From: Candidatus Hydrothermarchaeales archaeon
GTDB lineage: Archaea > Hydrothermarchaeota > Hydrothermarchaeia > Hydrothermarchaeales > JAZGAD01
NCBI GenBank assembly: GCA_036444275.1
Contig: JAZGAD010000015.1
Span: forward strand, 1 to 64,000
Length of the DNA stretch: 64,000 nucleotides
Direction: 5' to 3'
Both the position numbers and the translations under genes were made by a program. Each line of letters starts with the position of its first letter. Position 1 is the first letter of the stretch. Shown here in pieces: positions 6,911 through 64,000 of this stretch. A model generated the notes under the pieces. The model was not told the DNA's origin and did no database searches. It saw nothing but the letters and a program-made list of their open reading frames with translations.

Positions 6911-7032
6911 AAGAGAGTCAAACCCATTTTTATCGGTAAAAAATCGGAAGAGTTTTTTGTTGGCGGGACACGCAGAAATACTATATAACTTTGACAAAAA
7001 GATTTATATATTGCCATACCTATATAGGACTC

Positions 7033-7836
7033 ATGCCTTTGGAAGTTCCCCAAATGGTCCTAGATTATGTCGAAGGGAAGAACTTTGTAACGGTAGAGGA
7101 CCTGTTGGAGAGATTCGGATTCAAGAGGGTGACAGCCTACAACTATCTCAGCCGACTCAAGAAAAAGGGCATCGTATCTAGAGTGGGTTACGGCAGATAC
7201 AGGGTCGGTACGTACAAGCCGACACCGTCTTCCATGGTCACGAGGGTGAAGCGGATAGTGGATATCGTAAGAGAAAAGATGCCTTTCATCGAGTTCAGTA
7301 TATGGAGCATTGGGAACCTAGCCGAGTTCTCCCACTATGCTATTGGAAAAGATGTGGCCTTCATCGAGGCGGATAAGCGCACTTCGAGGAAGATAAGGGA
7401 CGTTCTCCTGGAGAAGAACATTCATTCCCTCGTGGAGCCATCAAGGGGAGAGTTGGGGGATATTTTCAGCCTCTTGGAGGAGCCGTTAATCATCTTCCAG
7501 CGGAGAGAAGCTTACGCCACTATTAAAAAGGACAGAGTGAGGATACCCCTCTTGGAGAGGATGATGGTGGACCTTTATTTCTATATCACTCGCCTTGGAT
7601 TCCCCTACCCTCCGGACGAGTACGGGCGGATGTTCTACAACATCCTCAAAGCCAGGACACTTAACTTTGACATGCTCAGGAAGTATGCATCTAGGAGGTC
7701 CGTGAGGGAAGAGATGACCAGCCTTTTATCCAGGATGCGGGAAAAGTATCCCGAACTGTCGATCCCGGAGTTGGGGGAAAGAGCCCTTGAAGTGGAGACG
7801 ATTCTGGAGGAGATAGTAAGGGGGGCTTCGCTGTGA
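7033..7836 (+). CDS. AbiEi-like type IV antitoxin (wHTH)
   Basis: N-terminal wHTH (LSRLKKKGIVSRVGYGRY), LERMMVDL; overlaps downstream NTase gene. Confidence 0.7.
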   Translation: MPLEVPQMVLDYVEGKNFVTVEDLLERFGFKRVTAYNYLSRLKKKGIVSRVGYGRYRVGTYKPTPSSMVTRVKRIVDIVREKMPFIEFSIWSIGNLAEFSHYAIGKDVAFIEADKRTSRKIRDVLLEKNIHSLVEPSRGELGDIFSLLEEPLIIFQRREAYATIKKDRVRIPLLERMMVDLYFYITRLGFPYPPDEYGRMFYNILKARTLNFDMLRKYASRRSVREEMTSLLSRMREKYPELSIPELGERALEVETILEEIVRGASL

Positions 7837-9038
7837 GGGAGTTCATTCAGAAGTATGGCGAGGAGCTCTGTGGAAAATTAGAGTTTTTTCTAGAAGAGAC
7901 TCTTCGTGGGCACGTCGAGAAAAAGAGAGCCTCAAACCTCACCAACCTCCTTAAAGCTGTCCACGTCCTAGAGTACCTTGGTCAGTTGCGGAGAGAGGGT
8001 TTGGATCCCCTCTTCAAGGGTGGTTCCGCAGTGCAACTGCTTCTACCTAATGGCTGGCAGCGGCTCAGCATAGACTTGGATTTAGCCATGGAAGTCTCTA
8101 GAGACGAGGTCGAGGAGGCATTGAGAGGAATCCATGAGAGATTCGGCAGTGAGTATTATTCCTACGAACCAAGGGAGGGCAAGCTTGAATCAGGGGTGCC
8201 CTTCTACAACTACCGAATTACCGTTCCCACTTTCGGTGGTGAAGCTATTATTTTGCTAGACATAATGCTGGTGGACCTGGGATACGAAAGACAGAGGAAG
8301 GCACTGCGCAGCTTCTTCTACGAATCCGAAGTCGAGGTCGAGACACCTACCATGGATGCTATTCTTGGGGATAAGCTGTCCACCCTGGGGCCAGACACCA
8401 TAGGCAGATATCTGCGGGACAGTAGAAATGGGCTGGAGTACGTGAAGCACCTCTACGACATCAAACAACTCCTACCGCACGTGAAAGACCTGAACAAGAC
8501 ATTTGCGGCTTACAGGGAGAGCTATGAACTCCAATTGAGGATAAGGAATATCAAGTTGGATTTGGACGCTAGCCTAAAGGATCTAATCCATGTCTGCAAG
8601 TTTCTAACCCTGACCAAGGACACGGCAGTAGAGCAGACTTCTTTGCTGGGTGGAGAGGGCGCCAAGACCTTGGAGTACTTTAGGATATGCAACAGGGGAT
8701 TGGCTAGGTTTCAGCCCTTCTTGACCCTTGACAATGTCTTCACTTGGGAGAACGTTCGTGAGACGGCGGCAGTCATCGCCTTTGCTGCAAAACTGATGGA
8801 ACAAGGAAGGATGGGAAAGATTGGTGGAGAAGCGACTGATCTGCTTAGATCTGCCATGGAAGGGGCACTGCGCATAGCTCAAGACGAGGCAGTGGTCGAT
8901 AAGATGATAGAAGAAATCGCTTCTCAACCCGCAGAAGAGAGATGGCACATAAACAGCAACGAGATCAAGGAGAGCCCGCTATTGACCGTCTTTTGGTACG
9001 GCTATTGGAGCCCTGAAAGATTTGCGGAGTACCTCTGA
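7833..9038 (+). CDS. AbiEii/AbiGii nucleotidyltransferase toxin
   Basis: FKGGSA, RLSIDLD, DKL, KHLYD motifs. Confidence 0.85.
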   Translation: MREFIQKYGEELCGKLEFFLEETLRGHVEKKRASNLTNLLKAVHVLEYLGQLRREGLDPLFKGGSAVQLLLPNGWQRLSIDLDLAMEVSRDEVEEALRGIHERFGSEYYSYEPREGKLESGVPFYNYRITVPTFGGEAIILLDIMLVDLGYERQRKALRSFFYESEVEVETPTMDAILGDKLSTLGPDTIGRYLRDSRNGLEYVKHLYDIKQLLPHVKDLNKTFAAYRESYELQLRIRNIKLDLDASLKDLIHVCKFLTLTKDTAVEQTSLLGGEGAKTLEYFRICNRGLARFQPFLTLDNVFTWENVRETAAVIAFAAKLMEQGRMGKIGGEATDLLRSAMEGALRIAQDEAVVDKMIEEIASQPAEERWHINSNEIKESPLLTVFWYGYWSPERFAEYL

Positions 9039-14484: not shown

Positions 14485-14871
14485 TCATATTACTTCTGCA
14501 TTTTCTAGACCTTGAAAGTCCGAGTCGCAGGTAACAAGGATGGCATTCGCCTCATCAGCACCCACGTATATGAGGGCGTCTATCGTGTGGAGTCTCTTCT
14601 CTACGGATATCTCAGCAGCCTTCTCCACCTGGGTTTCGTTTACGTCTGTGATTATGCTGCGTTCCTTGATGAAGTTCACCGCCCCGTCAATATCCTTCGT
14701 TGAGTGTTTCTCTCTCAGCATCTTCCTCTTCACTTCGAATAAAGAAAGGACAGATGTAAAGACTACGGCCTCGGATTCAATGACATTTCTCGCCCTCTTG
14801 ATCTCTCCATAGAAGTACGAAAGCCAGACAGACGAGTCAACGAAGTAGCTAGATCTTGCGGTCTTCTTCAT
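14485..14871 (-). CDS. vapC: VapC (PIN) toxin
   Basis: FVDSSVW, E, DALIY, LVTCDSDF. Confidence 0.9.
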   Translation of the reverse strand: MKKTARSSYFVDSSVWLSYFYGEIKRARNVIESEAVVFTSVLSLFEVKRKMLREKHSTKDIDGAVNFIKERSIITDVNETQVEKAAEISVEKRLHTIDALIYVGADEANAILVTCDSDFQGLENAEVI

Positions 14872-15058
14872 CCCTGAGTCCCTCCAGGATCGCCGTCCTT
14901 GACTTCTTACCCAGCACACCGAAGAGCGATTTTTTGGGGTGCATCGCCTCTTCGACGAGCCTCTCGATGACCCTGTCGTAAGACTCCAACTTGTACCTCC
15001 CCTTAATTTTCTTCAGCACCTTTATTGTGGTCTTACTCACTTGGATAGTTGTCGTCAT
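14849..15058 (-). CDS. vapB: VapB antitoxin
   Basis: MTTTIQVS..SYDRVIERL..SLFGVL; overlaps toxin. Confidence 0.8.
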   Translation of the reverse strand: MTTTIQVSKTTIKVLKKIKGRYKLESYDRVIERLVEEAMHPKKSLFGVLGKKSRTAILEGLRDEEDRKI

Positions 15059-25194: not shown

Positions 25195-25833
25195 ATGGAG
25201 GAATGGGAGTATCGTAGGCCGAAGAAAACTGATGATGCATTTAAATCTCGCACTCAAGATTGGTGGAACAACGCCACGATAGATTCTAAAGACTTGTATA
25301 AGTCTGGTGAAGGAAACTGGAATATTTATGCTGAGGGCTACAAACGCGCTGGTGACTGGTTGTTTGAGCGCGTAAATCAGGGGAGGGCAGACCAAGATTT
25401 TGTTGTTTATCCAATAGTATTCTTATATCGTCATGCTATTGAACTCAAATTGAAATGGATAATTGAAATCGGTGGTAGACTTATAGATGAACCTCGGGAC
25501 TTACGGATCAGTCATGACCTTATTGCACTTTGGAAGGAATGTCGAGAAATATTAGAAAAAGTATGGTCAGAGGGATCTAGTGATACGCTTGATACAGCTG
25601 AAAAAATAATTAATCAATTTTCAAAGGAAGATCCAGAATCCATGACTTTCAGGTATCCAGTTGACACAGATGGGAATTTTTTAATCCCCGACTCAAAGTT
25701 AATTAATCTAGAAAACCTAAAAGATGTAGTTGAAGGAATTTACAATTTACTTAATGGATCAAGTACTGGTATATCTGAATATTTGGATGGAAAATATGAA
25801 TCAGAATACCATAGACAACAAGAGCAATTCTAA
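25195..25833 (+). CDS. Hypothetical, HEPN-like helical protein
   Basis: FLYRHAIELKLK, HDL, FRYP pattern typical of HEPN-like folds. Confidence 0.55.
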   Translation: MEEWEYRRPKKTDDAFKSRTQDWWNNATIDSKDLYKSGEGNWNIYAEGYKRAGDWLFERVNQGRADQDFVVYPIVFLYRHAIELKLKWIIEIGGRLIDEPRDLRISHDLIALWKECREILEKVWSEGSSDTLDTAEKIINQFSKEDPESMTFRYPVDTDGNFLIPDSKLINLENLKDVVEGIYNLLNGSSTGISEYLDGKYESEYHRQQEQF

Positions 25834-25846
25834 GATACGTCAGAAA

Positions 25847-26728
25847 TCATATTCCTATTTGGTTTTTTAACCAATTAGTTTGGCTTTTGGGATCTCTTAC
25901 CATATCCCATTGAACATCAGCTTTTTTAGGCTTAAATTTTGCTGAGAGGTACTGAGAAGCACCTTCAAGTTGATTTTCGTCTAACAGATTTACTAAATAT
26001 AAATTTTCAATTGTTTCATATGGTTCGTTACGTTCGCCATGCACAACTTCCATTTTGCCACCATTGATACACATGACTTTATTTTTATCAATTCTGTAAT
26101 TACTTGACCAAAAAAAATCCGCCCCTAATATATGTCCTTCTCCTACACGGTAGGACGGCCAATCTGGAGAGTTAACAATTTTCCAAGGTAAAACGCCAAA
26201 GTGGTTTTTTTCAAGACCTACAATGTCAATAGAATCTACTTTAATTCCAGCCAATACATCTGTGTCTAAAAACCTTTTCCAAGATTCAGAAATACTAACG
26301 ATTTTCCCACGAATTTCAACTGTAGTGCCGGAGAAATATTTTATCATTGGTCTTTTCGTTTCATGTTGGAAAAATAAAGGTATACAGTTTGGATCTCCTG
26401 CAAATTCTGAATTAAAGTCTTGGAGACTAGAACAATATGTATCATTAATGGAAAATGGTTTACAGGGAAGTGGATCTATCATCAACGGTGCTGAGATTTT
26501 CTCTAATTTCGTATCTAAAGTTATATTTCTTGAGATTGGTAAAAAATCAGAATAGATTCCTGTTACTGTTACTATTGCCCCATAATCAATTTCGTTCTGA
26601 TTTATTGATTCAAGTAATTCAGGAAATTCAAAGGAAACAGATTTATCTTTTTCAGGAACCAAATTTAAGATATCAATTGTATCCTTAAGAATCCTGAAAA
26701 ATTTCAAAATTCCCCCAATAACTGTCAT
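25847..26728 (-). CDS. Hypothetical protein
   Basis: 293-aa AT-rich ORF, co-oriented with short spacers. Confidence 0.7.
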   Translation of the reverse strand: MTVIGGILKFFRILKDTIDILNLVPEKDKSVSFEFPELLESINQNEIDYGAIVTVTGIYSDFLPISRNITLDTKLEKISAPLMIDPLPCKPFSINDTYCSSLQDFNSEFAGDPNCIPLFFQHETKRPMIKYFSGTTVEIRGKIVSISESWKRFLDTDVLAGIKVDSIDIVGLEKNHFGVLPWKIVNSPDWPSYRVGEGHILGADFFWSSNYRIDKNKVMCINGGKMEVVHGERNEPYETIENLYLVNLLDENQLEGASQYLSAKFKPKKADVQWDMVRDPKSQTNWLKNQIGI

Positions 26729-26737
26729 TCTTATCCC

Positions 26738-27559
26738 TTACAACGCATTTCTAAATTTATTGCATAAGGTTCCCTTGGAACCATTTGTAATTTTTTCAAT
26801 GGTATTTCTAATGCCGATTTTTCGTCTTTTTTTTTGACTCCAAAATATAAAGGTAATATCTTTAAGTTTTGCTTTTTGTTTTATGCGTTTATTTTTTGAG
26901 TAATCCCAACCAACAAACGATAAGGTTTCTCTAAGATCACGTTCATTTACTGGTGTAGTTAATATGTCCCAATAGTCAAAACAAATAGAATGCGTATCCA
27001 ATTTTCCTTTAATACAGTCGGTTGCATATATAATTCTCCCCCCGTTGTTAAAGACAAAGATATTTGGCTCTTGAAAAACTTCTGATGGGTACCCCCAAAA
27101 AACATCTATTTTCTTTTTTGAATTTTTAATATAAGCATCAAATTTTTTCCTTACGTCTTTAAAGACTGAATTAACTTTTTTCTCAGACATGCCTTTTTTA
27201 TAAGAGATATTACCTCCATAAAGTGGGTAATCTACTATCATCCTATTTTTTGATTTCAGTTCCGAATAGGATGAGCAGACATAAAATATCGTAACATCAA
27301 AGGGAAATCCACCTACATACATTACTTCAGAAAAAGAACTAGTCAACTCTTTTTCAATTGGAGGATTCAAAATAAATAATTCTCTAATATCCAAGTAATG
27401 CCAAAATGAAGAAATCCAATACTGATCAAGAAAAAACTTATTGGCTACATTTTCTAAAGCTGGTCCTTCTTCCCATTTTAAAATGTTGAGAATAGTGCGA
27501 TGTGAGGGCCGTATATGCCTTTTTATTGTATCTGGATTTTTTGAATTTTCAATTTTCAT
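26738..27559 (-). CDS. Hypothetical protein
   Basis: 273-aa AT-rich ORF in the same run. Confidence 0.7.
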   Translation of the reverse strand: MKIENSKNPDTIKRHIRPSHRTILNILKWEEGPALENVANKFFLDQYWISSFWHYLDIRELFILNPPIEKELTSSFSEVMYVGGFPFDVTIFYVCSSYSELKSKNRMIVDYPLYGGNISYKKGMSEKKVNSVFKDVRKKFDAYIKNSKKKIDVFWGYPSEVFQEPNIFVFNNGGRIIYATDCIKGKLDTHSICFDYWDILTTPVNERDLRETLSFVGWDYSKNKRIKQKAKLKDITFIFWSQKKRRKIGIRNTIEKITNGSKGTLCNKFRNAL

Positions 27560-27564
27560 TACCG

Positions 27565-28335
27565 TTAAAGATGTGCTACTTCAAAACCTCTTTCTCTAAG
27601 TTCATTAGAAACCATGCTCCTATGGCATTCATTAGGATCTAGTTCGAAGCACATCAAACATGATCGAGTATATTTCACAATCTTCTCAAGCTTGTCTAAT
27701 TCCGATTTTTCATTTTCTAAGTATTTTTTGTATTCATTGAAAAACCAAGGGTACCCTTTTTTCTTTAGCCCCTCCCTAAGGTTTTTGGGGGCACCTAATT
27801 CCTTGAGTGATAAGTAATCTATGTCTTCCGAAGTAAGATTTTTTTCCAAGACCCTATGAGAAAAACCCACCTTGCGACTAAAACCGTTAGCTCGTATATC
27901 AACCAAAATTTTAATATTATTAATCTTTAAGAGTTTAATAAAATTCTCTACATCACGCTTCTCATAACCCACGGTAAAAACAACATTGCTATCCTTTATA
28001 CCTAAGGGCTTAATGGTTCCTTGAACGCTTAAGTCTCGTAATTTCTTTTCCTCATGCCTTTTTTTCATCAATTCTAATGCAGTTACAAACTCCATTTCCA
28101 TAACATCCATGTTATCTAAGATATCAATGTAGTCTAGTGTACCCTTAGCATCTCTTATAGATTTTCCTACCTTATGTAAAGTGTTACTAATGGCAGGTTG
28201 TTTTATCCCCAATGTTTTAGCGATTTCGCTTTGACGTTTACCTTGCTTATGGAAGAAATAAATTTCGATTTGTTTTCGAGTTAGATTTCCAAATTTCTCA
28301 TCCACGCTAATAACCTCTATAACTAATATAACCAA
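27565..28335 (-). CDS. HTH + DUF488 domain protein
   Basis: N-terminal sigma4-like HTH (QSEIAKTLGIKQPAIS); FTVGYE, LVDIR, LMCFE..CHR. Confidence 0.85.
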   Translation of the reverse strand: MVILVIEVISVDEKFGNLTRKQIEIYFFHKQGKRQSEIAKTLGIKQPAISNTLHKVGKSIRDAKGTLDYIDILDNMDVMEMEFVTALELMKKRHEEKKLRDLSVQGTIKPLGIKDSNVVFTVGYEKRDVENFIKLLKINNIKILVDIRANGFSRKVGFSHRVLEKNLTSEDIDYLSLKELGAPKNLREGLKKKGYPWFFNEYKKYLENEKSELDKLEKIVKYTRSCLMCFELDPNECHRSMVSNELRERGFEVAHL

Positions 28336-28382
28336 TATTGATTATATCTACTATAAATTACTTTCGGAAAAATAGTCGGAAA

Positions 28383-29168
28383 TTAGATGACTTTTGGAGG
28401 GTAATACAACCCTATGATTAACCAGCTAGGTTGCAGAAAATAAGTTCCCATGTAGAAATATAAGTCTTTTTTGGTTATCATTTCATCAAAATATCGTTGC
28501 TTCAACTTCTCCCATAGAACCTCTTTTCTGGGGTACGTCCATCTCCAACTTCTATAAGACTGGAAAAGTTCCCAATCTTCACAAGTAATGTCGTGGTTTT
28601 TGCATGATTCACCTTGGCAAGAAAAACGGTATCTAAAAACATGAGGTAGTATTTCTAAATCACTTCGCTTCTCCCCAAACAATGTTTCTTGATAACATTC
28701 TTTTGCTTTTGCTAGTGTCTTGTCGTCCTCGTTCAACTCTTCGGACATATAGAAGTTGAATAGGTCTTTAGGTTTTATCAAGCCCAGAGAAGTCTTATCT
28801 TCAGAATAACTTTCTCTTAATCTCTCCACTGATTTTTCAAGCATTGGTAAAACGATTTCGTTACGAGACTTCCAATCTGTTGGTCTTTCGTTTAAGGACG
28901 TATCAACGATTTTCAACGTGTTCGGTCTAATTTTATGGCTCTCCTTTCTTCGAAGTTTTTCACTCTTTGAATTATTTCTGCATTCTACCTCAATCCAATC
29001 ATACTTCCGAAATGTTTTTTTACTCCTAAAAATTTCAAATGGAATCGGGTAGAGTCTGATCCATTCTCCATCTTCAGTAATCCCAGAAGTACATACACAA
29101 GCCTTATATTTTGTACTGGGTTCAGGATACGCCTTTACTGTGACCAAAACCTTCTTTTTCTCCCACAT
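28383..29168 (-). CDS. Conserved hypothetical protein (DUF488-associated, OB-like)
   Basis: TVKAYPEPS..VCTSG..WIRLYPIPF, CEDWE, IIGLYYPP. Confidence 0.7.
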   Translation of the reverse strand: MWEKKKVLVTVKAYPEPSTKYKACVCTSGITEDGEWIRLYPIPFEIFRSKKTFRKYDWIEVECRNNSKSEKLRRKESHKIRPNTLKIVDTSLNERPTDWKSRNEIVLPMLEKSVERLRESYSEDKTSLGLIKPKDLFNFYMSEELNEDDKTLAKAKECYQETLFGEKRSDLEILPHVFRYRFSCQGESCKNHDITCEDWELFQSYRSWRWTYPRKEVLWEKLKQRYFDEMITKKDLYFYMGTYFLQPSWLIIGLYYPPKVI

Positions 29169-29169
29169 T

Positions 29170-29478
29170 TTAACCCCCAGACATCATCCAAACTGTCCTA
29201 TACCCTTGTTTTTTTCTTCTTAATCCTATGTCGCTTTCCAATCTTCTTACCCAGATGTTGTTTGGAAGTTTTTGAGGAAGGTTCTTTGTAGATCTTATCT
29301 CCATCCAAGTTAGTCCTTCAGGAGTCTCCTCCAATGCTCCCCTAATACGTTCCATGAACTTCTCATAAAAGATTTTCTTTTTTCGGATTTTTTTAGAATG
29401 ACCAGGTTTCAGCAAAAGCGTTGAATCCTTTACTTCTTCAGCCAATTCCTCCCCGACTTTCCAGCCGAGCTTTTCCAT
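29170..29478 (-). CDS. Putative DNA-binding protein (AbrB-like start + wHTH)
   Basis: KLGWKVGEEL..LLLKP; EGLTWMEIR. Confidence 0.5.
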   Translation of the reverse strand: MEKLGWKVGEELAEEVKDSTLLLKPGHSKKIRKKKIFYEKFMERIRGALEETPEGLTWMEIRSTKNLPQKLPNNIWVRRLESDIGLRRKKQGYRTVWMMSGG

Positions 29479-29550
29479 AACTAGGCGTATTCCTTAATCC
29501 TAAATATAAACTTTTACGTATATTTTAAAACAACTAAAACGTGGGAAGAA

Positions 29551-29696
29551 CCATTTCTTTGGTACTCAACCGCCTTTTTAATTAACCCTTCCCATTTGTT
29601 CCTACCTAGCTCTAAATCCAACCCCGCCATTTCTGCGGGTGTATGTCCATGTAGTGCTTGGTGTGGCCGTATGAAGTTATAGTAGTGCCGATAATT
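29551..29696 (-). mobile_element. DDE (IS6-like) transposase C-terminal remnant 1
   Basis: YYNFIRPHQALHGHTPAEMAGLDLELGRNKW. Confidence 0.75.
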
Positions 29697-30802
29697 TATT
29701 CTTTCTTTCCACAAAATGGGCAGTAAATTAAATCTGAATATCTTAAATTCCCGCAATTCGAACATTTTGTCTTAATCTGTCTCCCGCAATTTGGGCAAAA
29801 ATGATCAGAAAGGCTCAAGTTAAGTGAGCAATTCGGGCACTTACTCTCCTTTAAATGTCTTAAAGCCACCTTTTTTGGATCATAAATTTTCTTTTGAATG
29901 AAATAGACAATACCCCCTAGAATCAAGATTACTAGTGCTGTAACTCCATAATACACTATATATTTCATTATAGAAATGCTCATTAATACCTTGAAAATTC
30001 TTGAGAACCACGCCCTCGGCAGTATTTGGTACAGAAATGCTAAAACGATTTGTAAAAATAATATTGTAGAGGCATAGAATACTGACGTTGCAATTATCGT
30101 ATAGGGACTATCTCTCTTCTTATACTTCAAATAATAACTAAGGGAAATTGCAAAGAATGGGAGAACGAATAGTAGTTTTAACAAAAATACTTTAAGATTA
30201 TAATACGCAATCCTGGTTTTGTAACGTTCCTGGGCATTGTAGTGAGAATTTTTAAGTTCGTCTACTTTTGGAGTTATCCTTTGAACGACCTCGTCTCTCG
30301 TGATAGTCAATTCATTTATTTCTGTTCTAAGATTATCGTTATTTGTTCTCAAGGAGATTATTTGATTTTTTATCTCCGGCTTATCCATTAATGCTGCTGC
30401 TTCTTCTGCAATGGTTTCCTGGAGACTTAGACCGTATTTCTGCAATAATTCATTTAACTGCCGTTCATTAGAGTGGATCAAGTTTTGTTTGCTTGAAATC
30501 TCGTTATTATATCCAATAATAGTATTTAATTCAGGGTCTAAATTGTTGACTAAAGTATCTAACTCAAATTCTTTGTCAATCTCATTGAATCTACATGTGG
30601 GTTTACGACGGATGTATTCCATACTGCCAAGGTAACTGTTAACGCAATAGCTTGGGCCTACAGGGCGCTCAGGGATTTTTGAGATATCCGAAAAAATGGT
30701 CTGGCCGATTATTATCAAAAAGAAAAATAATGCAATTAGTATCAGGTAACCTAATTTTGAGGTTTTCTTTTCACTTATCTCGGTGTATGTGTCTGTCCCC
30801 AT
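29696..30802 (-). CDS. Membrane protein with coiled coil and C-terminal double zinc ribbon
   Basis: N-terminal TM, long coiled coil, 3 TM, four CxxC pairs. Confidence 0.8.
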   Translation of the reverse strand: MGTDTYTEISEKKTSKLGYLILIALFFFLIIIGQTIFSDISKIPERPVGPSYCVNSYLGSMEYIRRKPTCRFNEIDKEFELDTLVNNLDPELNTIIGYNNEISSKQNLIHSNERQLNELLQKYGLSLQETIAEEAAALMDKPEIKNQIISLRTNNDNLRTEINELTITRDEVVQRITPKVDELKNSHYNAQERYKTRIAYYNLKVFLLKLLFVLPFFAISLSYYLKYKKRDSPYTIIATSVFYASTILFLQIVLAFLYQILPRAWFSRIFKVLMSISIMKYIVYYGVTALVILILGGIVYFIQKKIYDPKKVALRHLKESKCPNCSLNLSLSDHFCPNCGRQIKTKCSNCGNLRYSDLIYCPFCGKKE

Positions 30803-39846: not shown

Positions 39847-40056
39847 TTATGTGGGATGCCCCACCCCCCATATCCCAAGCTCTTTTGCTTTGTATTCGAT
39901 TTTTTCCATCGCTTCTTCGTCTAGAAAAGATTCACCGCATTTATCGCAGATTTCTGCTGGAAATTTTCCTAAAGCTACTCCGAACATCTCCTCTCCTACT
40001 TCTCCATTCCTTAGGTTGCCTTTTTCACAGATCGGACATTTCATTTCTATCGCCAT
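39847..40056 (-). CDS. YgiT/MqsA-type zinc finger (probably truncated antitoxin)
   Basis: MKCPIC..ICDKCGESF..IEYKAKELGIWG. Confidence 0.7.
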   Translation of the reverse strand: MAIEMKCPICEKGNLRNGEVGEEMFGVALGKFPAEICDKCGESFLDEEAMEKIEYKAKELGIWGVGHPT

Positions 40057-40140
40057 CTTGATTTTACGGTAATGATATATACCTTCTTTCCGGGTTTCGC
40101 ACGAAGTGGAAAAGGCCAAGAGGCGAGCGATGGAAAGTGA

Positions 40141-40461
40141 TTAACTTTTCTCCACAACTAGCTTTTTACCATCGGTCGTGAATACCAGCTTGTCTCCTTT
40201 TCCTATTTTTAGAAACTCTCTTACATCTACAGGTATTCTCACAACAAGGGATTTCCCTAATGCTCCTACTTTTGCCTCGATTCCTGTATAGAGCTTATTT
40301 AGAAGTAGGAGTTTTTGCGATTGCTCTGGATCAAGTAAAACTTCCCCACATTTACTGCATCTGACTCCCTCTACCTCTATACTCTGATCTCTAAACTTCA
40401 CTTTCACTTTCTCTTTTTTCATTTTTGAACCGCATACACTGCATTTATCCATTTTTATCAC
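40141..40461 (-). CDS. YgiT zinc finger + AbrB antitoxin
   Basis: CSVC..CSKCGE; GKSLVVRIP..LKIGKGD. Confidence 0.85.
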   Translation of the reverse strand: MIKMDKCSVCGSKMKKEKVKVKFRDQSIEVEGVRCSKCGEVLLDPEQSQKLLLLNKLYTGIEAKVGALGKSLVVRIPVDVREFLKIGKGDKLVFTTDGKKLVVEKS

Positions 40462-40728
40462 CTATATCTTTCCTACGTGTATTATTTTCCAAGCAGGGTC
40501 ACCAAGATAAGTCGACTTGACGACTACCGCCTTGTATCTCTTGCCCTTCTTTCGAAGGCATTTTTCAATTGTGCCTTTTGCACGCTTGCTCCTCTCACAA
40601 TTTGAGCCTCTTTCAAGGATTTCCAAAACGTCGTATAGGTCAAATTTCAGGTCGATCAATTCATAGTATGCTGCTTGAGTAAGTACTAGTTGAATGCCCT
40701 GCCATCGAACTATCACTAATATCTCCAT
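40462..40728 (-). CDS. DUF4258-like (RelE/BrnT-fold) putative toxin
   Basis: VLEILERG..EKC..KAVVV..WKIIHVG; upstream of Zn-AbrB gene. Confidence 0.65.
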   Translation of the reverse strand: MEILVIVRWQGIQLVLTQAAYYELIDLKFDLYDVLEILERGSNCERSKRAKGTIEKCLRKKGKRYKAVVVKSTYLGDPAWKIIHVGKI

Positions 40729-40729
40729 A

Positions 40730-40747
40730 GATATCATTGATGATATC
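40730..40747. promoter_or_regulatory. Palindromic TA operator
   Basis: GATATCA-TTGA-TGATATC beside a TATA-like box. Confidence 0.5.
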
Positions 40748-40801
40748 ATATAAAAGGATTACTGTTATTAAGCCAAAAACCATTAAACTGAGCAAATTTA
40801 A

Positions 40802-58079: not shown

Positions 58080-59663
58080 ATGGTAAACTTAAGAAAAATT
58101 GGAGCTATAGCGACTGGCGCTCTGTTTATCGGGGCTACACTCGGTATGGCAGTGGCAGTTACAGTGCCTACTACGTTCCAGAGTAGCATGCTCGCCCAGA
58201 ACGGCGTTGCAAAAGCGAAGCTCGTTATAGGCGATAAAGCGGGCGGTATCGCGGCAGATAGGGCTAGTGCTAACATTATAGCGGACGCAGTTGCTGACAA
58301 GCTCGCAGTTTCAGGCGGCACCGGTGGTCAGATTGAGGTTAAGTATGGCCAACAGGACCTGAACGACGTTGATGGTGTGACTAGCAAGGACTACTTTGAC
58401 CTCGACGGCGATGGAGAAGGTGATAACAACACGATAGATCTAGATGGAACAGGTATCCAAGACAGCCGATACTATGCCGTTGAAGGCGCGTTAAAGTATG
58501 ATGCAAACGCCGACGGCGACTTAAAAGACAGCGGCGACTACAACCTCTACAGCGGCATATACACCGTGAACGGAGCAGACGGTGCGATAAGATTCACCTA
58601 CGCCGTAGGTGGAAGCGACATGATAAACGTGGAATCAAGCTACAAAGACGCCGATGATGAACTAGAGAAAGGAGAGGTCTTCAAAGTTAAAGGGACGAAG
58701 TATGCGCTGACAGACATAGAATGGGATTCAGGTGAAGTGGACATAGGACCCGCTAAAGCACTGAAATTCGGAGCGGTTACGGTGGCGGGAAATGTAGACG
58801 CGGATCACGCAAGGATTGTTACAGGAGACTGGAAGATACTCTACAACACTCCAGATACAAATATAGATACAATTAACTTCTATGAGGGCGGCTCCTTGGT
58901 AGACACATATATAATCGACGCTAATGCTGCTACCCCAATAAAGTTGAACGAGAAGGTAGCCGTTGGCACACTCGAAGATTCATACAACATATACCTGATA
59001 ACACACCCCGCCGCTAGTGCCGCTATGAGCTTCGTCGACAAGGATGCTACAGTGGAACTTGTGAACGACCAGGAAAACGCCTTGGGCTATGCCAAGGTAT
59101 TGATAAACGACGACGACTTCGATAATACAGCTGGTGCCAAGATTACGAAGGCGATAGCCTTCCAGGACACTGTAGTCACTCTGGTTAGGGATGACACCAT
59201 AGACTTGGCTGATACGGACTTCCAGTTGAAATGGAGTATATCCAAAGAACTTGACATAAAGCGCGCGAAGGACAAGACCCAGGCAAGCGGAGCGAAGTGG
59301 AAGTCAAGCAAATACAAAGACTTCCTCCAGGGAACAGATGGCACAGACATATACATCTCCGTGACTGGAGGCGGATCAGCAACACCCTCTGTACCAGTAG
59401 TCACAGACGACGCAGTGACCAGCGCAGACAAGAGCGGCTACAACCTCGTCTTAGTAGGCGGACCAGTTGCCAACAGCTTGACTGCAGACCTGGGCTCAAC
59501 CAAAGCAGACGATGCAGGTGACCTTGCCTTCTGGCAAGCCAGCGATGGAGACATAAAGGTCGTCTCTAGCGCATTTACATCAGGTAAATACGGCATAGTC
59601 GTCGCAGGCAAGAACAGAGAAGCAACGAAGACAGCTGCAGAAGCACTCGCAGCCGCACTATAA
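58080..59663 (+). CDS. S-layer protein (Methanococcales/Thermococcales type)
   Basis: KIGAIATGALFIGATLG leader, LVIG..AAD, NLVLVGGPVAN, IVVAGKNREAT. Confidence 0.9.
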   Translation: MVNLRKIGAIATGALFIGATLGMAVAVTVPTTFQSSMLAQNGVAKAKLVIGDKAGGIAADRASANIIADAVADKLAVSGGTGGQIEVKYGQQDLNDVDGVTSKDYFDLDGDGEGDNNTIDLDGTGIQDSRYYAVEGALKYDANADGDLKDSGDYNLYSGIYTVNGADGAIRFTYAVGGSDMINVESSYKDADDELEKGEVFKVKGTKYALTDIEWDSGEVDIGPAKALKFGAVTVAGNVDADHARIVTGDWKILYNTPDTNIDTINFYEGGSLVDTYIIDANAATPIKLNEKVAVGTLEDSYNIYLITHPAASAAMSFVDKDATVELVNDQENALGYAKVLINDDDFDNTAGAKITKAIAFQDTVVTLVRDDTIDLADTDFQLKWSISKELDIKRAKDKTQASGAKWKSSKYKDFLQGTDGTDIYISVTGGGSATPSVPVVTDDAVTSADKSGYNLVLVGGPVANSLTADLGSTKADDAGDLAFWQASDGDIKVVSSAFTSGKYGIVVAGKNREATKTAAEALAAAL

Positions 59664-59769
59664 ACAAGAACAGAAACGCTAAAAAATAGAAGCCTCCGGG
59701 CTTCTATCCTTTCTTTTTTTTATTTTTATAACGATTTAAGTTGATTCCTGGAAGTGATAATAGTCCATG
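59583..59769 (+). repeat. S-layer 3' end + terminator, copy 1 (resident)
   Basis: 73-bp core 59594-59666 identical to copies 2 and 3. Confidence 0.95.
59687..59728 (+). terminator. Hairpin + U-tract terminator
   Basis: TAGAAGCC-TCCG-GGCTTCTA followed by T-rich run. Confidence 0.85.
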
Positions 59770-59830
59770 GAGAAGCCGTAAGATCATAATAGAAGGTCCG
59801 GTCACAATATTTTTTAAAGAGCTGATTACT

Positions 59831-59986
59831 ATGAGCGAAGTTGTAACTATCTCGGGAGAAAAATACCTCGGGATGAAAAGGGAAATTGATACCTTGAGGA
59901 AAACAAAACTGTATAAGAGGCTTCTTGAGTTTGAAGAGGATATAAAGAGAGGCAATATTTATACAAGAAACGATTTAGGGTTCTGA
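59831..59986 (+). CDS. Orphan RelB-like antitoxin
   Basis: VTISGEKY..MKREI..EEDIKRGNIY. Confidence 0.55.
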   Translation: MSEVVTISGEKYLGMKREIDTLRKTKLYKRLLEFEEDIKRGNIYTRNDLGF

Positions 59987-60100
59987 TTTTTCTTTAAGTT
60001 TTTCGATGGTTGCCTGTTGCCTTGCTGCACTGGTTTTCATTTCATACTCGAAGACATAGATTTGATTTGTATTTCTCACATGTTTGAAATAAAAAAGTTT

Positions 60101-60121
60101 ACATATGTTAATTACATATGT
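60101..60121. promoter_or_regulatory. Tandem palindromic operator
   Basis: ACATATGT twice upstream of TA pair. Confidence 0.5.
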
Positions 60122-60137
60122 TTAGTGGAGATGTTGA

Positions 60138-60407
60138 ATGATTCTTGAGTGGAAGGGACTTCCAGTTATACCGAGCAAGAGTGCTGCAGACGAGATGTAT
60201 AGGGAAAAATTGCTCATTCACGACATCGTCGAAATCCTTGAAAACGGCTATGACTGTGCGAGGAGCAGACGAGGGGCGGATGTGTATGAGAGGTGCGTGG
60301 ACACAAAAAATAAGACACTGAAGGTCGTGGTTGCCAGATCTTACAATTATGACTTGAAGAGTGAGGTCTGGGTAGTAACCCATGTGGGTATGTTCACCAG
60401 GAGGTAG
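60138..60407 (+). CDS. DUF4258-like putative toxin
   Basis: Paralog of 40462-40728 (EILENG..ERC..KVVV..WVVTHVG). Confidence 0.65.
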   Translation: MILEWKGLPVIPSKSAADEMYREKLLIHDIVEILENGYDCARSRRGADVYERCVDTKNKTLKVVVARSYNYDLKSEVWVVTHVGMFTRR

Positions 60408-60411
60408 AGTT

Positions 60412-60720
60412 ATGGAAGGAATGAGATGCGTCAAATGCAATGGAACGGCTAAGAAGGCCAAGCTAACTTTCCAAGGCATTGAGATAGACGGCTGGAGATG
60501 CAAATGCGGGGAAGAGTACTTCGATCCAGCTCAAGCTGAAAGGATTTTACTGTTGAACAAGCTGAAGGATGAAAGCTTCGAGGTCACCCTAGGGAAGAGC
60601 AGGAGCAACCTTATAATAAGGATCCCAGCCAAGGTGCAAGCTGCCCTGGATCTGAAGAAGGGGAAAACTATAACGCTGAGGGTCGAGGATGCTAAAAAAC
60701 TCGGGTTAGTAGTTACCTAG
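60412..60720 (+). CDS. Zinc finger + AbrB antitoxin
   Basis: CVKC..CKCGE..DP.Q..LLLNKL..LIIRIP; paralog of 40141-40461. Confidence 0.8.
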   Translation: MEGMRCVKCNGTAKKAKLTFQGIEIDGWRCKCGEEYFDPAQAERILLLNKLKDESFEVTLGKSRSNLIIRIPAKVQAALDLKKGKTITLRVEDAKKLGLVVT

Positions 60721-60884
60721 GGTTATTGAATTCTGATTCCTTACACCATCAGTACATGCAAGAACCGAGATGCAATAGCTTAGCTGCTCAAACTCGGTGC
60801 CACACTTAAATAAACCATAAAAACAGAATTTAAGCGAACTCAACATCACTGTCGGTACATCCCTTTTTTTTACCCTTGTTTCAT

Positions 60885-60986
60885 TCAGATCATCTCTACC
60901 AAGCCGAGGTCTTTTGTCTTTTCAAAGATTTTCTTGTCAGCTGTTTTCAACTTGAATTTCAACTCCTTTGCAACGGGCAAATACGC
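60885..60986 (-). pseudogene. VapC C-terminal fragment
   Basis: AYLPVAKELKFKLKTADKKIF, PIN C-terminal pattern. Confidence 0.55.
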
Positions 60987-61169
60987 CATAGTCGTCGCAG
61001 GCAAGAACAGAGAAGCAACGAAGACAGCTGCAGAAGCACTCGCAGCCGCACTATAAACATAACAGAAACGAAACGCGAACAAAAAATTAGAAGCCTTCGG
61101 GCTTCTATCCTTTCTTTTTTTTATTTTTATAACGATTTAGTTGATTCTTACAAGTAATGATAGTTCACG
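60962..61169 (+). repeat. S-layer 3' end + terminator, copy 2
   Basis: Core 60987-61059; hairpin TAGAAGCCTTCGGGCTTCTA. Confidence 0.95.
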
Positions 61170-61179
61170 AATCGTTACA

Positions 61180-61273
61180 TGAAGGGGGCGTTAACCGGGT
61201 GATGGCACCCCTGTGGTTGCGGTGTGCAACTCCGAAGGAATCCCCGGCCTTTAGGTCGCTGGGCGGATGTCAA
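61180..61273 (+). mobile_element. IS200/IS605-like right end (tnpB 3' / omegaRNA) remnant
   Basis: GGAATCCCCGGCCTTTAGGTCG..GGGCGGATGTCAA, typical right-end hairpin ending in TCAA. Confidence 0.6.
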
Positions 61274-61379
61274 TTACGATGACTTTTCATATTTTAGCGA
61301 TATCAGCGGATTATAATACCGCCTTGCCATGTTATAAACAGTAGAACTCAGGTACATTACTTCGGTGGAATGAGGGTTG

Positions 61380-61841
61380 TTATTCAATAAGTTCCTTCAA
61401 TCTCTGTCTATCTTCTGCTTTTTCGATGTTTATGGATTCCAGACCTTCTTTTGCAGCCGCTTTAAGGAGGCTCTTATCGCAGGCTAGAAATAAAGGCGAG
61501 ATGCTGACTATACAAGAGAAAAGTTGTAATGCATCATCTGCCGAGATGTGATGCGTTAATATCTTCTCAATTATAGGATATAGAAATTCGTCAGATAATC
61601 GTACAAGGGTGATGTTTTTGTCCAGTATATCTGAAAAGAGTATAGACAAGGACAAGTCTCTTTCTTCCGCAGTAATCTGTTTTTTCGCAACCTTTCTATC
61701 AATGGCCGCTGTTGCTTCAGCTAAAGTCCAGTGAGAGGTAACAATCTCATTGTCACTTTCAAAAATATCGCTTATTGCTTTAGATCCCTCTTCCTCACAA
61801 TATCTCTTCACAAAAGCAGAGGTGTCAAGGTAGACCTTCAT
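61380..61841 (-). CDS. vapC: VapC (PIN) toxin
   Basis: YLDTSAFVKRY.EEGS, DALQL, ACDKSL. Confidence 0.9.
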   Translation of the reverse strand: MKVYLDTSAFVKRYCEEEGSKAISDIFESDNEIVTSHWTLAEATAAIDRKVAKKQITAEERDLSLSILFSDILDKNITLVRLSDEFLYPIIEKILTHHISADDALQLFSCIVSISPLFLACDKSLLKAAAKEGLESINIEKAEDRQRLKELIE

Positions 61842-62062
61842 TAAGCTCCCCTAGTTTGCATGACAATCTTGGATAGCGGCTCGCCTTTTGATAGAATCTT
61901 TTTTACTTTCTCAATGTCTTTTTTAGATGTTTTACGGATCTCCAGTTTTAATCTATTCGCTATCTCTACCACCTTTTCACCTTTAGAAGTGTATAATCCG
62001 GTCTTCACCAACTTCTCGGATAACTCACTGATTATCTTCTTCTCAGAAACCATCTCTATCAC
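61841..62062 (-). CDS. Putative antitoxin
   Basis: Small basic ORF ending PLSKIVMQTR, coupled to vapC. Confidence 0.7.
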   Translation of the reverse strand: MIEMVSEKKIISELSEKLVKTGLYTSKGEKVVEIANRLKLEIRKTSKKDIEKVKKILSKGEPLSKIVMQTRGA

Positions 62063-62097
62063 TATCTACGATGAGTCTTGCAAGTATAAAAGATTTT

Positions 62098-62353
62098 GTA
62101 TTTTTGGAGGATGTCCTTATTCGGTACGATTATATCAACACCTAGATCGAATAGACTTGCAAGTGCTCTTTCTATATCCCCCTGGATCAAATCCCCTGTA
62201 TCCTAAGAGGTTCCCAAGTTCATATAAGGTTAAATCGCATATGATTATCGGGATCTTCCCACTCAAGAAATCATCCCTTATCACCAAGGCCTTTTCGGAA
62301 CCCTCTCCCTCAAGAAACCACTTTGCAACGACAGATGTATCTAAGACGACCAT
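62098..62353 (-). pseudogene. VapC 5' part, frameshifted and truncated
   Basis: MVVLDTSVVAKWF..YELGN; extra G in G-run near 62180, then DIERALASLFDLGV..ILQKI. Confidence 0.8.
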
Positions 62354-62544
62354 CTGCCGTCTCTCCACTCCCGTAAAAGTTCAACACTACTCTTGCCTTT
62401 CACAAATGACCTTGATTTCCTCCTCAACCTATCTTGAACTTCTGCGGCGTCCTTCGCTGAGGTGGAATCATGGAGCCTGTGCCCAACTAGAATCTCAAAG
62501 CGTTTTTCAATAGCACCCATATCTATCATATCCAAGATTATCAT
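62341..62544 (-). CDS. Putative VapB antitoxin
   Basis: C-terminal SSVELLREWRD overlapping the vapC start. Confidence 0.7.
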   Translation of the reverse strand: MIILDMIDMGAIEKRFEILVGHRLHDSTSAKDAAEVQDRLRRKSRSFVKGKSSVELLREWRDGRWSS

Positions 62545-62636
62545 TTATAATCCTTATAATACTTACTAACGGAGGCACTGTGTTTGGCGGTGTTTTGTTT
62601 TTGAAGTCAATATGAGGGCATTGGAAATTATCTTTG

Positions 62637-62816
62637 ACTCCTTTGCAACGGGCAAATACGCCATAGTCGTCGCAGGCAAGAACAGAGAAGCAACGAAGAC
62701 AGCTGCAGAAGCACTCGCAGCCGCACTATAAACATAACAGAAACGAAACGCTAAAAAATGGAAGCCTTCAGGCTTCTACTTCTTTTTTTTTATTTTTTAC
62801 AACGATCCCTGGAAAG
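62637..62816 (+). repeat. S-layer 3' end + terminator, copy 3
   Basis: Core 62662-62734; hairpin GAAGCCTTCAGGCTTC + T run. Confidence 0.95.
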
Positions 62817-63039
62817 GTATAAGTATAAGAAAATTACACATCTCAGGGGTTCTCCGCTTATTCCTTGATGACTCCTCCGTAAAATCACTAGAACATGTCA
62901 AGCTCTTCGAGTGAATAATACACTAGAGCAGTGGTTCGGATGTTTGTGGCCATGTAGCCTCGGCGAGAAAGGAGGGGATTAAGAGAAGAGTGGTAGATGG
63001 GTAGTAATATATAAATCAGATGAGTTCCTATTTATCGGC

Positions 63040-63444
63040 ATGCGATTCGATAAATTCTTCAGTGAAAAAAAATACGTTGAACTCGCGTATCTCTTCGGTT
63101 CTTTTGCAGAAGGCAGATTTAGTAAATTGAGTGATATAGATATCGGTATTTATCTTTCTGATGACCTGTCAAAAAAACAGAGAAATCGAAAGCATCTTAA
63201 GTTGATTGCGGAACTTACAAGTTTTTTAAAAAACGATAAGATAGACCTTGTGATAATGAACGATGCCTCCTTGGCTATAAACTTCGAGATAATCAAGGCA
63301 AACAGGCCGGTTTTCGTCAGGGAGAGGGATTTAAAACTTGAGGTGGAGCAGCGGATCATGTCCCGCTATCTAGATCGGGAGTTTCACGAAAGGCGTCTCA
63401 ATGCGGCATTCCTTAAAAGGGCTGCAACTCGGGGGCTGGCATAG
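63040..63444 (+). CDS. mntA: Minimal nucleotidyltransferase antitoxin (type VII TA)
   Basis: YLFGSFAEG..SDIDIG, IDLV. Confidence 0.9.
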   Translation: MRFDKFFSEKKYVELAYLFGSFAEGRFSKLSDIDIGIYLSDDLSKKQRNRKHLKLIAELTSFLKNDKIDLVIMNDASLAINFEIIKANRPVFVRERDLKLEVEQRIMSRYLDREFHERRLNAAFLKRAATRGLA

Positions 63445-63445
63445 C

Positions 63446-63883
63446 ATGTCAGCAGCGGATAAGATTGCAAGAAAGCTCAATTTCATGCAGAGATATGTCG
63501 GCTATTTGAGGTCTGTGCAAGATACCGATAAAAAGACGCTTGAAGAGGATTACGGGCTTCGAAGCTCCATCGAGCGCAACTTCCATCTTGCCATAGAGAG
63601 CGCTATAGACATAGGGGAAATTATAATCTCAGAGGAAGGATTTAACAGGCCGGAAGATTATCGTAGCGTTTTTCTCATCCTGGGCAGGCAGGGCATCTTG
63701 CCAGGGGACTTCACAGAGAGCTTTTCCCTCGCCGCTGGCTTCAGGAATATTCTAGTCCATGCATACGAAGAAGTCGATCCCGACATAGTATACGACTTTT
63801 TAACCGAAAAACTCGGTGACTTCGATGATTTTGCCAGGCATATCGCAAGATACCTAGAGAAAAAAACACAAGAAAAGAAGTGA
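63446..63883 (+). CDS. hepT: HEPN (DUF86) RNase toxin
   Basis: GFRNILVHAY Rx4H motif. Confidence 0.9.
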   Translation: MSAADKIARKLNFMQRYVGYLRSVQDTDKKTLEEDYGLRSSIERNFHLAIESAIDIGEIIISEEGFNRPEDYRSVFLILGRQGILPGDFTESFSLAAGFRNILVHAYEEVDPDIVYDFLTEKLGDFDDFARHIARYLEKKTQEKK

Positions 63884-64000
63884 AGTGAAGGCGAAGATCC
63901 TTACTGGGGACCCAGATTTCAAAGGAATAAAAGGTGTCGTGTTCATCGGCTAGTTCAAAAATTCCCAGACGGTGAGGATTGTTGTGCACGTACCTCCCTC

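Follow-up and report, generated by a model that had tools for sequence, protein, structure and literature searches.

How does the end of one archaeal surface-layer (S-layer) gene come to stand three times in a row, each time beside a different set of toxin-antitoxin (TA) genes? The array that raises this question lies in a stretch of DNA from Candidatus Hydrothermarchaeales archaeon (contig JAZGAD010000015.1, positions 1 to 64,000). The window, as used below, is that whole stretch, 64,000 nt of a 70,086-nt metagenome-assembled contig. The movement of small selfish modules such as TA pairs in archaea without obvious transposition machinery is poorly understood, as is the exchange of S-layer genes between strains, the S-layer being the main surface of contact with viruses. 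A locus recording successive insertions would let population metagenomics link S-layer allele, cassette and cassette order. With moderate confidence we read the array as a series of scars that recombination left at the 3′ end of a fast-evolving surface gene with conserved ends. No evidence of dedicated machinery was seen in the sequence analyzed.

The resident S-layer gene (58080-59663, + strand) encodes a 527-aa protein whose N-terminus is signal-peptide-like and whose middle varies between a conserved head and tail. Its product matched the Pfam profile PF05124 with an E-value of 1.7e-15 (57.6 bits against a curated cut-off of 23.9). Thirty S-layer relatives were found, all from metagenome-assembled genomes (MAGs) of Hydrothermarchaeota. 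Each relative either carries PF05124 or is named as an S-layer protein, and the profile was detected in 30 of the 31 database matches. The closest homologue is 46% identical, and some of the matches are named as S-layer protein of Hydrothermarchaeota/Pyrohabitans. An alignment of 31 homologues shows conservation of the first ~95 and the last ~70 residues and a hypervariable middle that can barely be aligned. The gene is uninterrupted from 58080 to 59663, and direct repeats flank each insert downstream of it.

Three direct copies of the 3′ end of this gene were detected by a repeat search (59569-59690, 60962-61083, and 62637-62758), at spacings of 1393 and 1675 nt. A second repeat family corresponds to the terminator (59681-59738, 61082-61139, and 62753-62810). 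The threefold, directly oriented occurrence of gene end plus terminator that had been predicted was thus recovered both by the repeat search and by BLASTN. A core of 73 nt (59594-59666, 60987-61059, and 62662-62734) is identical in all three units, just as predicted and to the base. Chance does not account for it: a 74-mer starting one base before the core gave three matches at one mismatch or fewer, against 0.00 expected from 100 shuffles. The core makes up part of a larger unit, of about 170-200 nt by BLASTN (59574-59767 against 60967-61167, 87.6% over 202 nt; 60962-61136 against 62637-62806, 92% over 176 nt). No fourth copy was found by BLASTN elsewhere in the 64-kb window.

The order of parts is the same in each unit: the last ~31 codons of the gene, the stop codon, a short 3′ untranslated region (UTR), an 8-4-8 stem-loop, and a T run. 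Units 1 and 2 extend ~60 nt past the T run (segment d), and unit 3 has a downstream flank of its own. The first unit (59569-59767, +) is the end of the live gene, with ~31 codons, stop codon, 3′ UTR, hairpin at 59686-59707, T run, and d. The second (60961-61167, +) consists of a 31-codon remnant (60961-61056), 3′ UTR, hairpin (61088-61107), T run, and d. The third (62621-62806, +) holds a remnant of at least 36 codons (62621-62731), followed by 3′ UTR, hairpin (62759-62778), T run, and the distinct flank. A terminator scan detected the stem-loop and T run in every unit; owing to an A run ahead of the stem-loop, copies 2 and 3 score as terminator-like on either strand. The fold z-scores of the hairpins are -3.3, -2.1, and -1.7 for copies 1, 2, and 3. 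The 8-4-8 palindrome, TAGAAGCC-N4-GGCTTCTA, was matched three times in the window, always within a unit, against 0.28 expected.

On the evidence of their reading frames, the two extra copies are true S-layer gene ends and not chance repeats. In-frame translation yields 31 codons of the S-layer C-terminus in copy 2 and at least 36 in copy 3. A tblastn search with the C-termini of 31 homologues found both remnants (60961-61053 and 62621-62728), with a best E-value of 7e-14 among the top 40 alignments. The prediction that the tails are remnants of gene ends therefore stands, and comparison of the copies adds that these are truncated C-termini of another allele. At the point where the live gene has AFTSGKYGIVVAGK, both remnants have SFATGKYAIVVAGK. 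Just upstream of position 59594, copy 1 differs from the remnants at 8 of 26 nt, and then abruptly at 0 of 73. Judged by these differences, the remnants stem from an allele other than the resident gene.

The copies form a mosaic. Copies 2 and 3 agree at 20 of 20 positions in each stretch of 20 columns across 59580-59675; their identity continues for a few bases on either side and amounts to 114 nt, running from where remnant 2 begins to within the 3′ UTR. Copies 1 and 2 are almost the same from the hairpin to ~60 nt beyond the T run (19/20, 20/20, 16/20, and 14/18 in successive stretches), where copy 3 differs; copy 1 has its own variant of the 3′ UTR. At the edges of the units in the window the similarity fades gradually. 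No S-layer sequence was found further upstream of the remnants or in the non-coding DNA of the inserts, where the only matches had E-values of 0.36 or more. These weak matches overlap one another in different frames and were rejected as chance. Likewise, a tblastn search with 31 N-termini found no extra S-layer head in the window or in 20 related loci, only internal domain repeats. In the window and in these loci the tails alone are duplicated, never the heads.

Between the units lie two inserts. Insert 1 (about 59768-60960, ~1.2 kb) carries three open reading frames (ORFs) on the + strand, and insert 2 (about 61168-62620, ~1.45 kb) carries four on the - strand. Copy 3 is followed by adjacent genes for MntA and HepT, a type VII TA pair, both of which score above curated cut-offs. 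The layout is therefore gene, unit, cargo, truncated unit, cargo, truncated unit, as would be produced by homology-anchored insertion.

The following course of events is proposed. DNA from related strains would have entered at least twice, anchored through homology with the conserved S-layer gene end. It may have been a linear piece with an illegitimately joined far end (homology-facilitated illegitimate recombination, HFIR), which would be a "displacement" of the previous gene end, or a circle that carried the unit and integrated by a single crossover, a natural "pop-in". Each insertion would have kept the live gene intact and moved the older tail and its terminator downstream. Later exchange with the live copy, which is under selection, by gene conversion or recombination would have held the cores identical while the edges drifted. 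Only short remnants would survive, because an insert between long direct repeats would be lost again by recombination. Even direct repeats of ~200 nt should lead to loss of the inserts, and the short remnants and TA-bearing inserts seen here may represent survivorship. TA genes would be over-represented as the commonest small mobile genes in the genome, and may penalize loss of an insert. The duplicated bidirectional terminators probably insulate the cassettes from a very strong S-layer transcript.

Several features of the sequence would fit such serial insertion: the remnants of a foreign allele, their differing starts, the lack of a mobility gene, a gene with conserved ends and a variable middle, and the better preservation of the gene-proximal insert. 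It is insert 1, next to the gene, that is intact. Further on, a truncated PIN gene adjoins a PIN module that is intact, and HepT is followed by what may be a PIN C-terminus, a pattern that looks like the decay and nesting typical of accreted selfish genes. The suggestion that the conserved tail acts as a recombination anchor is reasonable. Of the two alternatives that the original prediction offered, old tails left behind by incoming alleles is the better one, plausible but unproven; integron-style accretion finds no support in the sequence analyzed.

Twenty related loci were available from one S-layer-alignment scan of species-representative genomes, a set that does not include the source genome of the window. 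The 3′ end of the S-layer gene is present in 12 of the 20, and 11 of these have at least 1 kb downstream. A second tail was found in a single one of the 12, L004, whose S-layer protein is 38% identical to that of the window. Its two tail copies (7065-7116 and 8039-8090; 52 nt, 96%) are separated by 922 nt. The duplication has crisp boundaries, comprises a remnant of 16 codons, and ends one base before the hairpin; the distal copy retains the hairpin terminator, and the live, proximal gene has a bare T run. A hairpin with T run is the terminator of the S-layer gene in L014, in L017, and in the distal copy of L004. The L004 insert consists of one coiled-coil gene with tandem repeats of ~11 residues (7305-8022) and has no TA module; a TA module is therefore not required for an insert flanked by tails. 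Homologues of the coiled-coil gene directly follow the S-layer gene in L017 (1471-2088, 38% identical to that of L004) and, as a near-identical gene compared by eye, in L014 (~708-1183), in both cases after the hairpin and with no tail duplication. In L008, the gap of ~200 nt that separates the S-layer gene from its next neighbor has no ORF of 70 aa or more. The coiled-coil protein may be S-layer-associated.

Contigs end inside the S-layer gene in 12 of the 20 loci (L001, L006, L007, L009, L011, and L014-L020; L018 is less certain). The contig of L002 ends ~90 nt after the gene, and one MAG supplied both L007 and L014, as two halves. These breaks suggest strain heterogeneity in the middle of the gene; internal repeats in the ~800-aa forms may contribute. 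The allele difference, the conserved ends, and the contig breaks together fit allele turnover with the tail as homology anchor. From the loci compared, the 3′ flank of the S-layer gene has been rearranged repeatedly in the phylum, with tail duplication arising at least twice independently; the phenomenon is neither general nor tied to TA genes. No TA family was detected by Pfam downstream of the relatives' S-layer genes, in 31 of 49 listed ORFs from ten loci. This result, the L004 insert without TA genes, and the scattering of TA genes through the window are points against a tight link between the S-layer and TA acquisition.

Short proteins corresponding to the tail alone were also searched for. 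With the window's own tail as query the sole match was a 39-aa ORF of the window itself (62615-62731, +), called as protein P0034; the remnant in copy 3 has an in-frame ATG. A tail profile of 13 sequences gave 16 short-protein matches, mostly C-terminal fragments indistinguishable from contig-end truncations. Two of the short proteins, P0039 (70 aa) and P0046 (85 aa), are fragments of S-layer C-termini that share 85% identity over 55 residues; the last 11 codons of P0046 are replaced. Each is listed on a 5,110-nt contig from the same source, possibly one contig, and the pair may be another instance of S-layer gene-end duplication. The strand opposite the units is open across all three cores of the window (59438-59719, 60885-61136, and 62566-62775, -; 93, 83, and 69 codons from stop to stop). 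These antisense frames would encode an Ala/Ser-rich hydrophobic stretch and are probably a by-product of Ala-rich tail codons.

A number of observations weigh against serial homology-anchored insertion. All three remnants (copies 2 and 3, and L004) are 43 codons or shorter, whereas random far joints predict any length up to ~500; survivorship may be the answer to this uniform shortness. The mosaic would fit an arrangement B-core-P′ / P-core-P′ / P-core-B′, made by two like elements, equally well. Both exchanges would then lie in the ~30 nt around the hairpin and not in the longer core, a preference not expected of homologous recombination alone; alternatively, the hairpin may be a fragile site that focuses breaks. 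Gene conversion of the cores is presumed. Among the loci with a 3′ end only 1 of 12 has a second tail, and there the coiled-coil gene looks like an old neighbor and not like incoming cargo, because it has diverged to 38% as the S-layer protein has, and is present without duplication in L014 and L017. With the nearest S-layer homologue only 46% identical and no close relative among the 20 loci, turnover between strains is hypothetical. Finally, in a metagenome contig with exact blocks of 73-114 nt, the order and number of the units depend on the assembler.

The main rival is one that we consider unlikely: two small, related elements, non-autonomous or decayed, would have inserted in tandem and site-specifically at an att site made of the S-layer 3′ end and hairpin, each carrying a replacement gene end, as is the habit of archaeal elements that target tRNAs and genes. 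Their recombinase would be encoded past position 64000 or at some other place. Each insert does have direct repeats on both sides, and the mosaic can be read as attL / attP-like / attR, with exchange in the ~30 nt around an 8-4-8 palindrome that is confined to the units. The duplicated segment of L004 stops immediately before its hairpin, and ~6 kb of contig lies beyond the window. PMC6563490 describes archaeal elements that target 3′-distal parts of protein genes and form tandem arrays. Against this, the inserts are only ~1.2 and ~1.45 kb long and are filled by TA genes, and no integrase turned up in them or among the ORFs that were scanned over the 64 kb. Remnant starts differ (-31, -36 or more, and, in L004, -16 codons), the edges of the window's units fade instead of ending crisply, and hairpin plus T run is an ordinary terminator of the S-layer gene in other genera.

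No integrase, transposase, or Cas1-like family was found among the window ORFs scanned (scans of 20, 57, and 20 ORFs), several of which had no match at all; the absence of an integrase noted in the original prediction was thus borne out among the ORFs scanned. A tRNA gene as an alternative att target was not found in the window. A 211-nt unit searched by blastn in distant mode against plasmid and phage collections had no match, which also speaks against site-specific elements. Beyond the hairpins, no terminal inverted repeats of the inserts were found. No Rfam family reached the gathering score in the window, with only sub-threshold noise in 59400-64000, and a GC-richer stretch at 61160-61300 folds no better than its shuffles (z +1.26).

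We regard as improbable a reading in which the S-layer gene end with its bidirectional hairpin terminator is a portable landing pad. Circulating cassettes would carry the ~200-nt unit, insert behind the gene with the strongest transcription in strains that share it, and be retained only with an addiction module; insertion would rely on host recombination functions or on a recombinase acting at the hairpin. If this were true, S-layer allele exchange under virus pressure would be mechanically coupled to the acquisition of TA and defense genes at one locus, and the array would correspond, in an archaeon, to integron or dif-module platforms, with a gene end in the place of a dedicated site.

It is very unlikely that the array is an assembly artifact, in which co-existing strains with different genes after the same tail were threaded through a shared block of 73-114 nt, so that order and copy number are unreal. 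The contig was assembled from a metagenome, its exact 73- and 114-nt blocks are of a size that tangles short-read graphs, and S-layer genes of the phylum assemble poorly, as the contig ends within the gene illustrate. However, a mis-join within the shared block cannot make the left junctions of copies 2 and 3, where cargo runs straight into a truncated gene end; real molecules must therefore contain two truncated tails at the least. Reads of 150 nt are able to span the blocks, and an analogous two-copy structure occurs in the independent assembly of L004.

Equally little probability is given to a history in which duplication came first. Slippage or unequal crossing-over would have duplicated the tail-terminator unit in tandem. 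The copies would have been retained as a multiple terminator, working in both directions behind the cell's strongest promoter, with TA genes inserted later and independently. The terminator-like character of units on both strands suits this, as does the arrangement of the cargo: insert 1 (+) and the PIN operon (-) both read toward copy 2, where terminators are needed, and TA modules are scattered through the genome. Yet two independent insertions exactly at unit boundaries would be required, and neither the differing remnant starts nor the foreign allele in copies 2 and 3 is predicted by local duplication.

An integron-like platform, with the unit as attC/attI and a dedicated integrase capturing promoterless cassettes, is hardly credible: the array does consist of small cassettes separated by a repeated hairpin-containing element, and TA cassettes are typical of chromosomal integrons, but no IntI-like gene was found among the ORFs scanned, a strict regular-expression search of both strands of the window for pairs of the attC core-site consensus R″(RYYYAAC)...R′(GTTRRRY) at 40-150 nt gave none, the repeat is a directly oriented gene end with terminator of ~200 nt, the cassettes are multi-gene and on opposite strands instead of mostly single ORFs in one orientation, and the remnants start at different codons.

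Serial homology-anchored insertion, the reading preferred here, can be set beside several known systems. In archaeal genetics, the single-crossover "pop-in" of circular DNA leaves an insert flanked by direct repeats of the homology segment, which can pop out again. That is a laboratory procedure, whereas natural small circles with an S-layer tail are hypothetical. The dif modules of Acinetobacter plasmids are likewise small, recombinase-less, often TA-bearing, and bounded by palindromic sites for a host enzyme. These modules are bounded by 28-bp Xer sites. The only palindrome here is the 8-4-8 terminator stem in direct orientation, a comparison made by palindrome alone.

Two architectures come closest, and the first is that of displaced gene ends in bacteria. 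In the type VI secretion (T6SS) orphan immunity arrays of Vibrio cholerae, according to PMC5361080, serial displacement leaves orphaned 3′ ends, for which HFIR has been proposed; "C-terminal displacement" in Rhs is cited in the same source. In these accounts, arrays of the Rhs, contact-dependent inhibition (CDI), and T6SS kind also open with one live gene, behind which stand 3′ fragments displaced from older or foreign alleles, together with the genes that arrived with each; the anchor is the conserved part of the gene, there is no dedicated recombinase, and new material arrives beside the live gene. They differ, in the same accounts, in that the displaced ends are variable, functional toxin domains with cognate immunity genes, which can be swapped back. 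In the S-layer array it is the conserved last 31-36 codons of a structural gene that are displaced, in an archaeal host and with unrelated TA cargo. No more than the best-conserved part of the S-layer protein is represented in the remnants, and the cargo is unrelated to that protein.

Integrated elements of archaea provide the second. In Thaumarchaeota, 14 of 68 such elements use 3′-distal parts of protein genes, and archaeal elements form tandem arrays (PMC6563490). These elements resemble the array in their direct repeats that include the gene 3′ end, in leaving the gene intact, and in the tandem arrays at one target, and are described there as having their own integrase or casposase, a length of several kb or more, and short att or target-site duplication repeats (PMC6563490). 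The S-layer array has inserts of 1.2-1.45 kb, fading repeats of ~170-200 nt, and differing remnant starts, and no recombinase was seen. Integron arrays, including archaeal ones, also have small cassettes separated by a recurring hairpin-containing sequence, and integrons are reported in 3-4% of the genomes of the phylum, mostly attC clusters without integrase (10.1101/2022.02.06.479319). Here no IntI or attC-type sites were found, the multi-gene cassettes lie on both strands, and the repeat is a gene end. By these analogies, the architecture of the array has clear precedents. An undescribed dedicated system, as originally proposed, is not favored by the evidence, which points to scars of recurrent insertion at a hot spot. 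If the array represents ordinary recombination scars its value is smaller, yet it warns of insertion hot spots and assembly traps at conserved gene ends with strong hairpin terminators in archaeal MAGs.

In outline the cargo was as predicted, with MNT-HEPN, an intact PIN gene, a broken PIN gene, and a Zn-ribbon/AbrB gene all identified; the "orphan antitoxin" and both "VapB" calls are based on position only and have no family. The first ORF of insert 1 (59831-59986, +; 51 aa) had no match in Pfam, NCBIfam, PADLOC, or PHROGs, and in the Atlas matched only clusters of unnamed 50-51-aa proteins. It is followed by a gene for an 89-aa putative toxin of RelE/Barnase fold, DUF4258-like (60138-60407, +), with matches to DUF4258 (E 9e-4) and PBECR1 (E 1e-3) that are both below cut-off; its product compared with Atlas DUF4258 clusters at a feature score of 0.91 and TM 0.69. 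The third gene (60412-60720, +) encodes a Zn-ribbon + AbrB/MazE-type antitoxin (PF04014, E 1.5e-5). A duplicated TACATATGT motif, noticed by eye at 60080-60125 just upstream of the DUF4258-like gene, may be the operator of this TA pair.

Insert 2 contains a gene for a PIN-domain (VapC-like) toxin of 153 aa (61380-61841, -; PF01850, E 5.2e-9, 37.2 bits against a cut-off of 23.6). A 73-aa ORF in the VapB position (61841-62062, -) lies upstream of the PIN gene and overlaps it; its best match was HTH_7 (E 0.009). The truncated PIN gene (62135-62368, -) is an N-terminal half that covers positions 1-62 of the 115-120 in the PIN_3/PIN profiles and aligns to residues 3-42 of the intact PIN protein. 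A 67-aa ORF upstream of it, in the antitoxin position (62341-62544, -), had no family match in the libraries scanned.

After copy 3, the MntA nucleotidyltransferase antitoxin is encoded at 63040-63444 (+; NF047752, E 2.5e-23, 82 bits against a cut-off of 60; PF18765, E 2.9e-19) and the HepT RNase toxin at 63401-63883 (+; likely start 63446; NF047751, E 9.7e-37, 125.5 bits against a cut-off of 60; PF01934, E 5.4e-31). A possible C-terminal remnant of another PIN gene follows at 63858-63953 (+). It matched the last 22 residues of the PIN protein encoded at 14485-14919 (-) with an E-value of 0.001 in a single comparison, which is weak, and the frame had no Pfam match. It may be a scrap of a gene disrupted on the arrival of MntA-HepT. 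PADLOC returned only MntA-like candidates for the cargo, and PHROGs gave no matches for the six cargo ORFs scanned.

Genes of the AbiEii, PIN, and YgiT/MazE types also occur elsewhere in the window, away from the array. A pair of toxin (40462-40749, -) and Zn-ribbon-AbrB (40141-40461, -) genes is paralogous to that of insert 1, with identities of about 28-32% by tblastx, and the product of the second combines a YgiT finger with MazE. A YgiT/MqsA-like zinc-finger ORF (39847-40119, -) lies beside this pair, and no tail or hairpin unit adjoins. A DUF6577 gene is paired with an AbiEii nucleotidyltransferase gene at 6991-9038, and the PIN gene at 14485-14919 (-) is solitary. The neighbors of the S-layer gene are other surface-protein genes with Big_13/CWB2, FG-GAP, and PKD domains; housekeeping, formylmethanofuran dehydrogenase, and CO-dehydrogenase genes were found elsewhere in the window, which is of chromosomal origin. 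Eight ORFs at 25195-30802, seven of them on the - strand, matched only DUF488 and a double zinc ribbon, and this region may be an island of unknown function.

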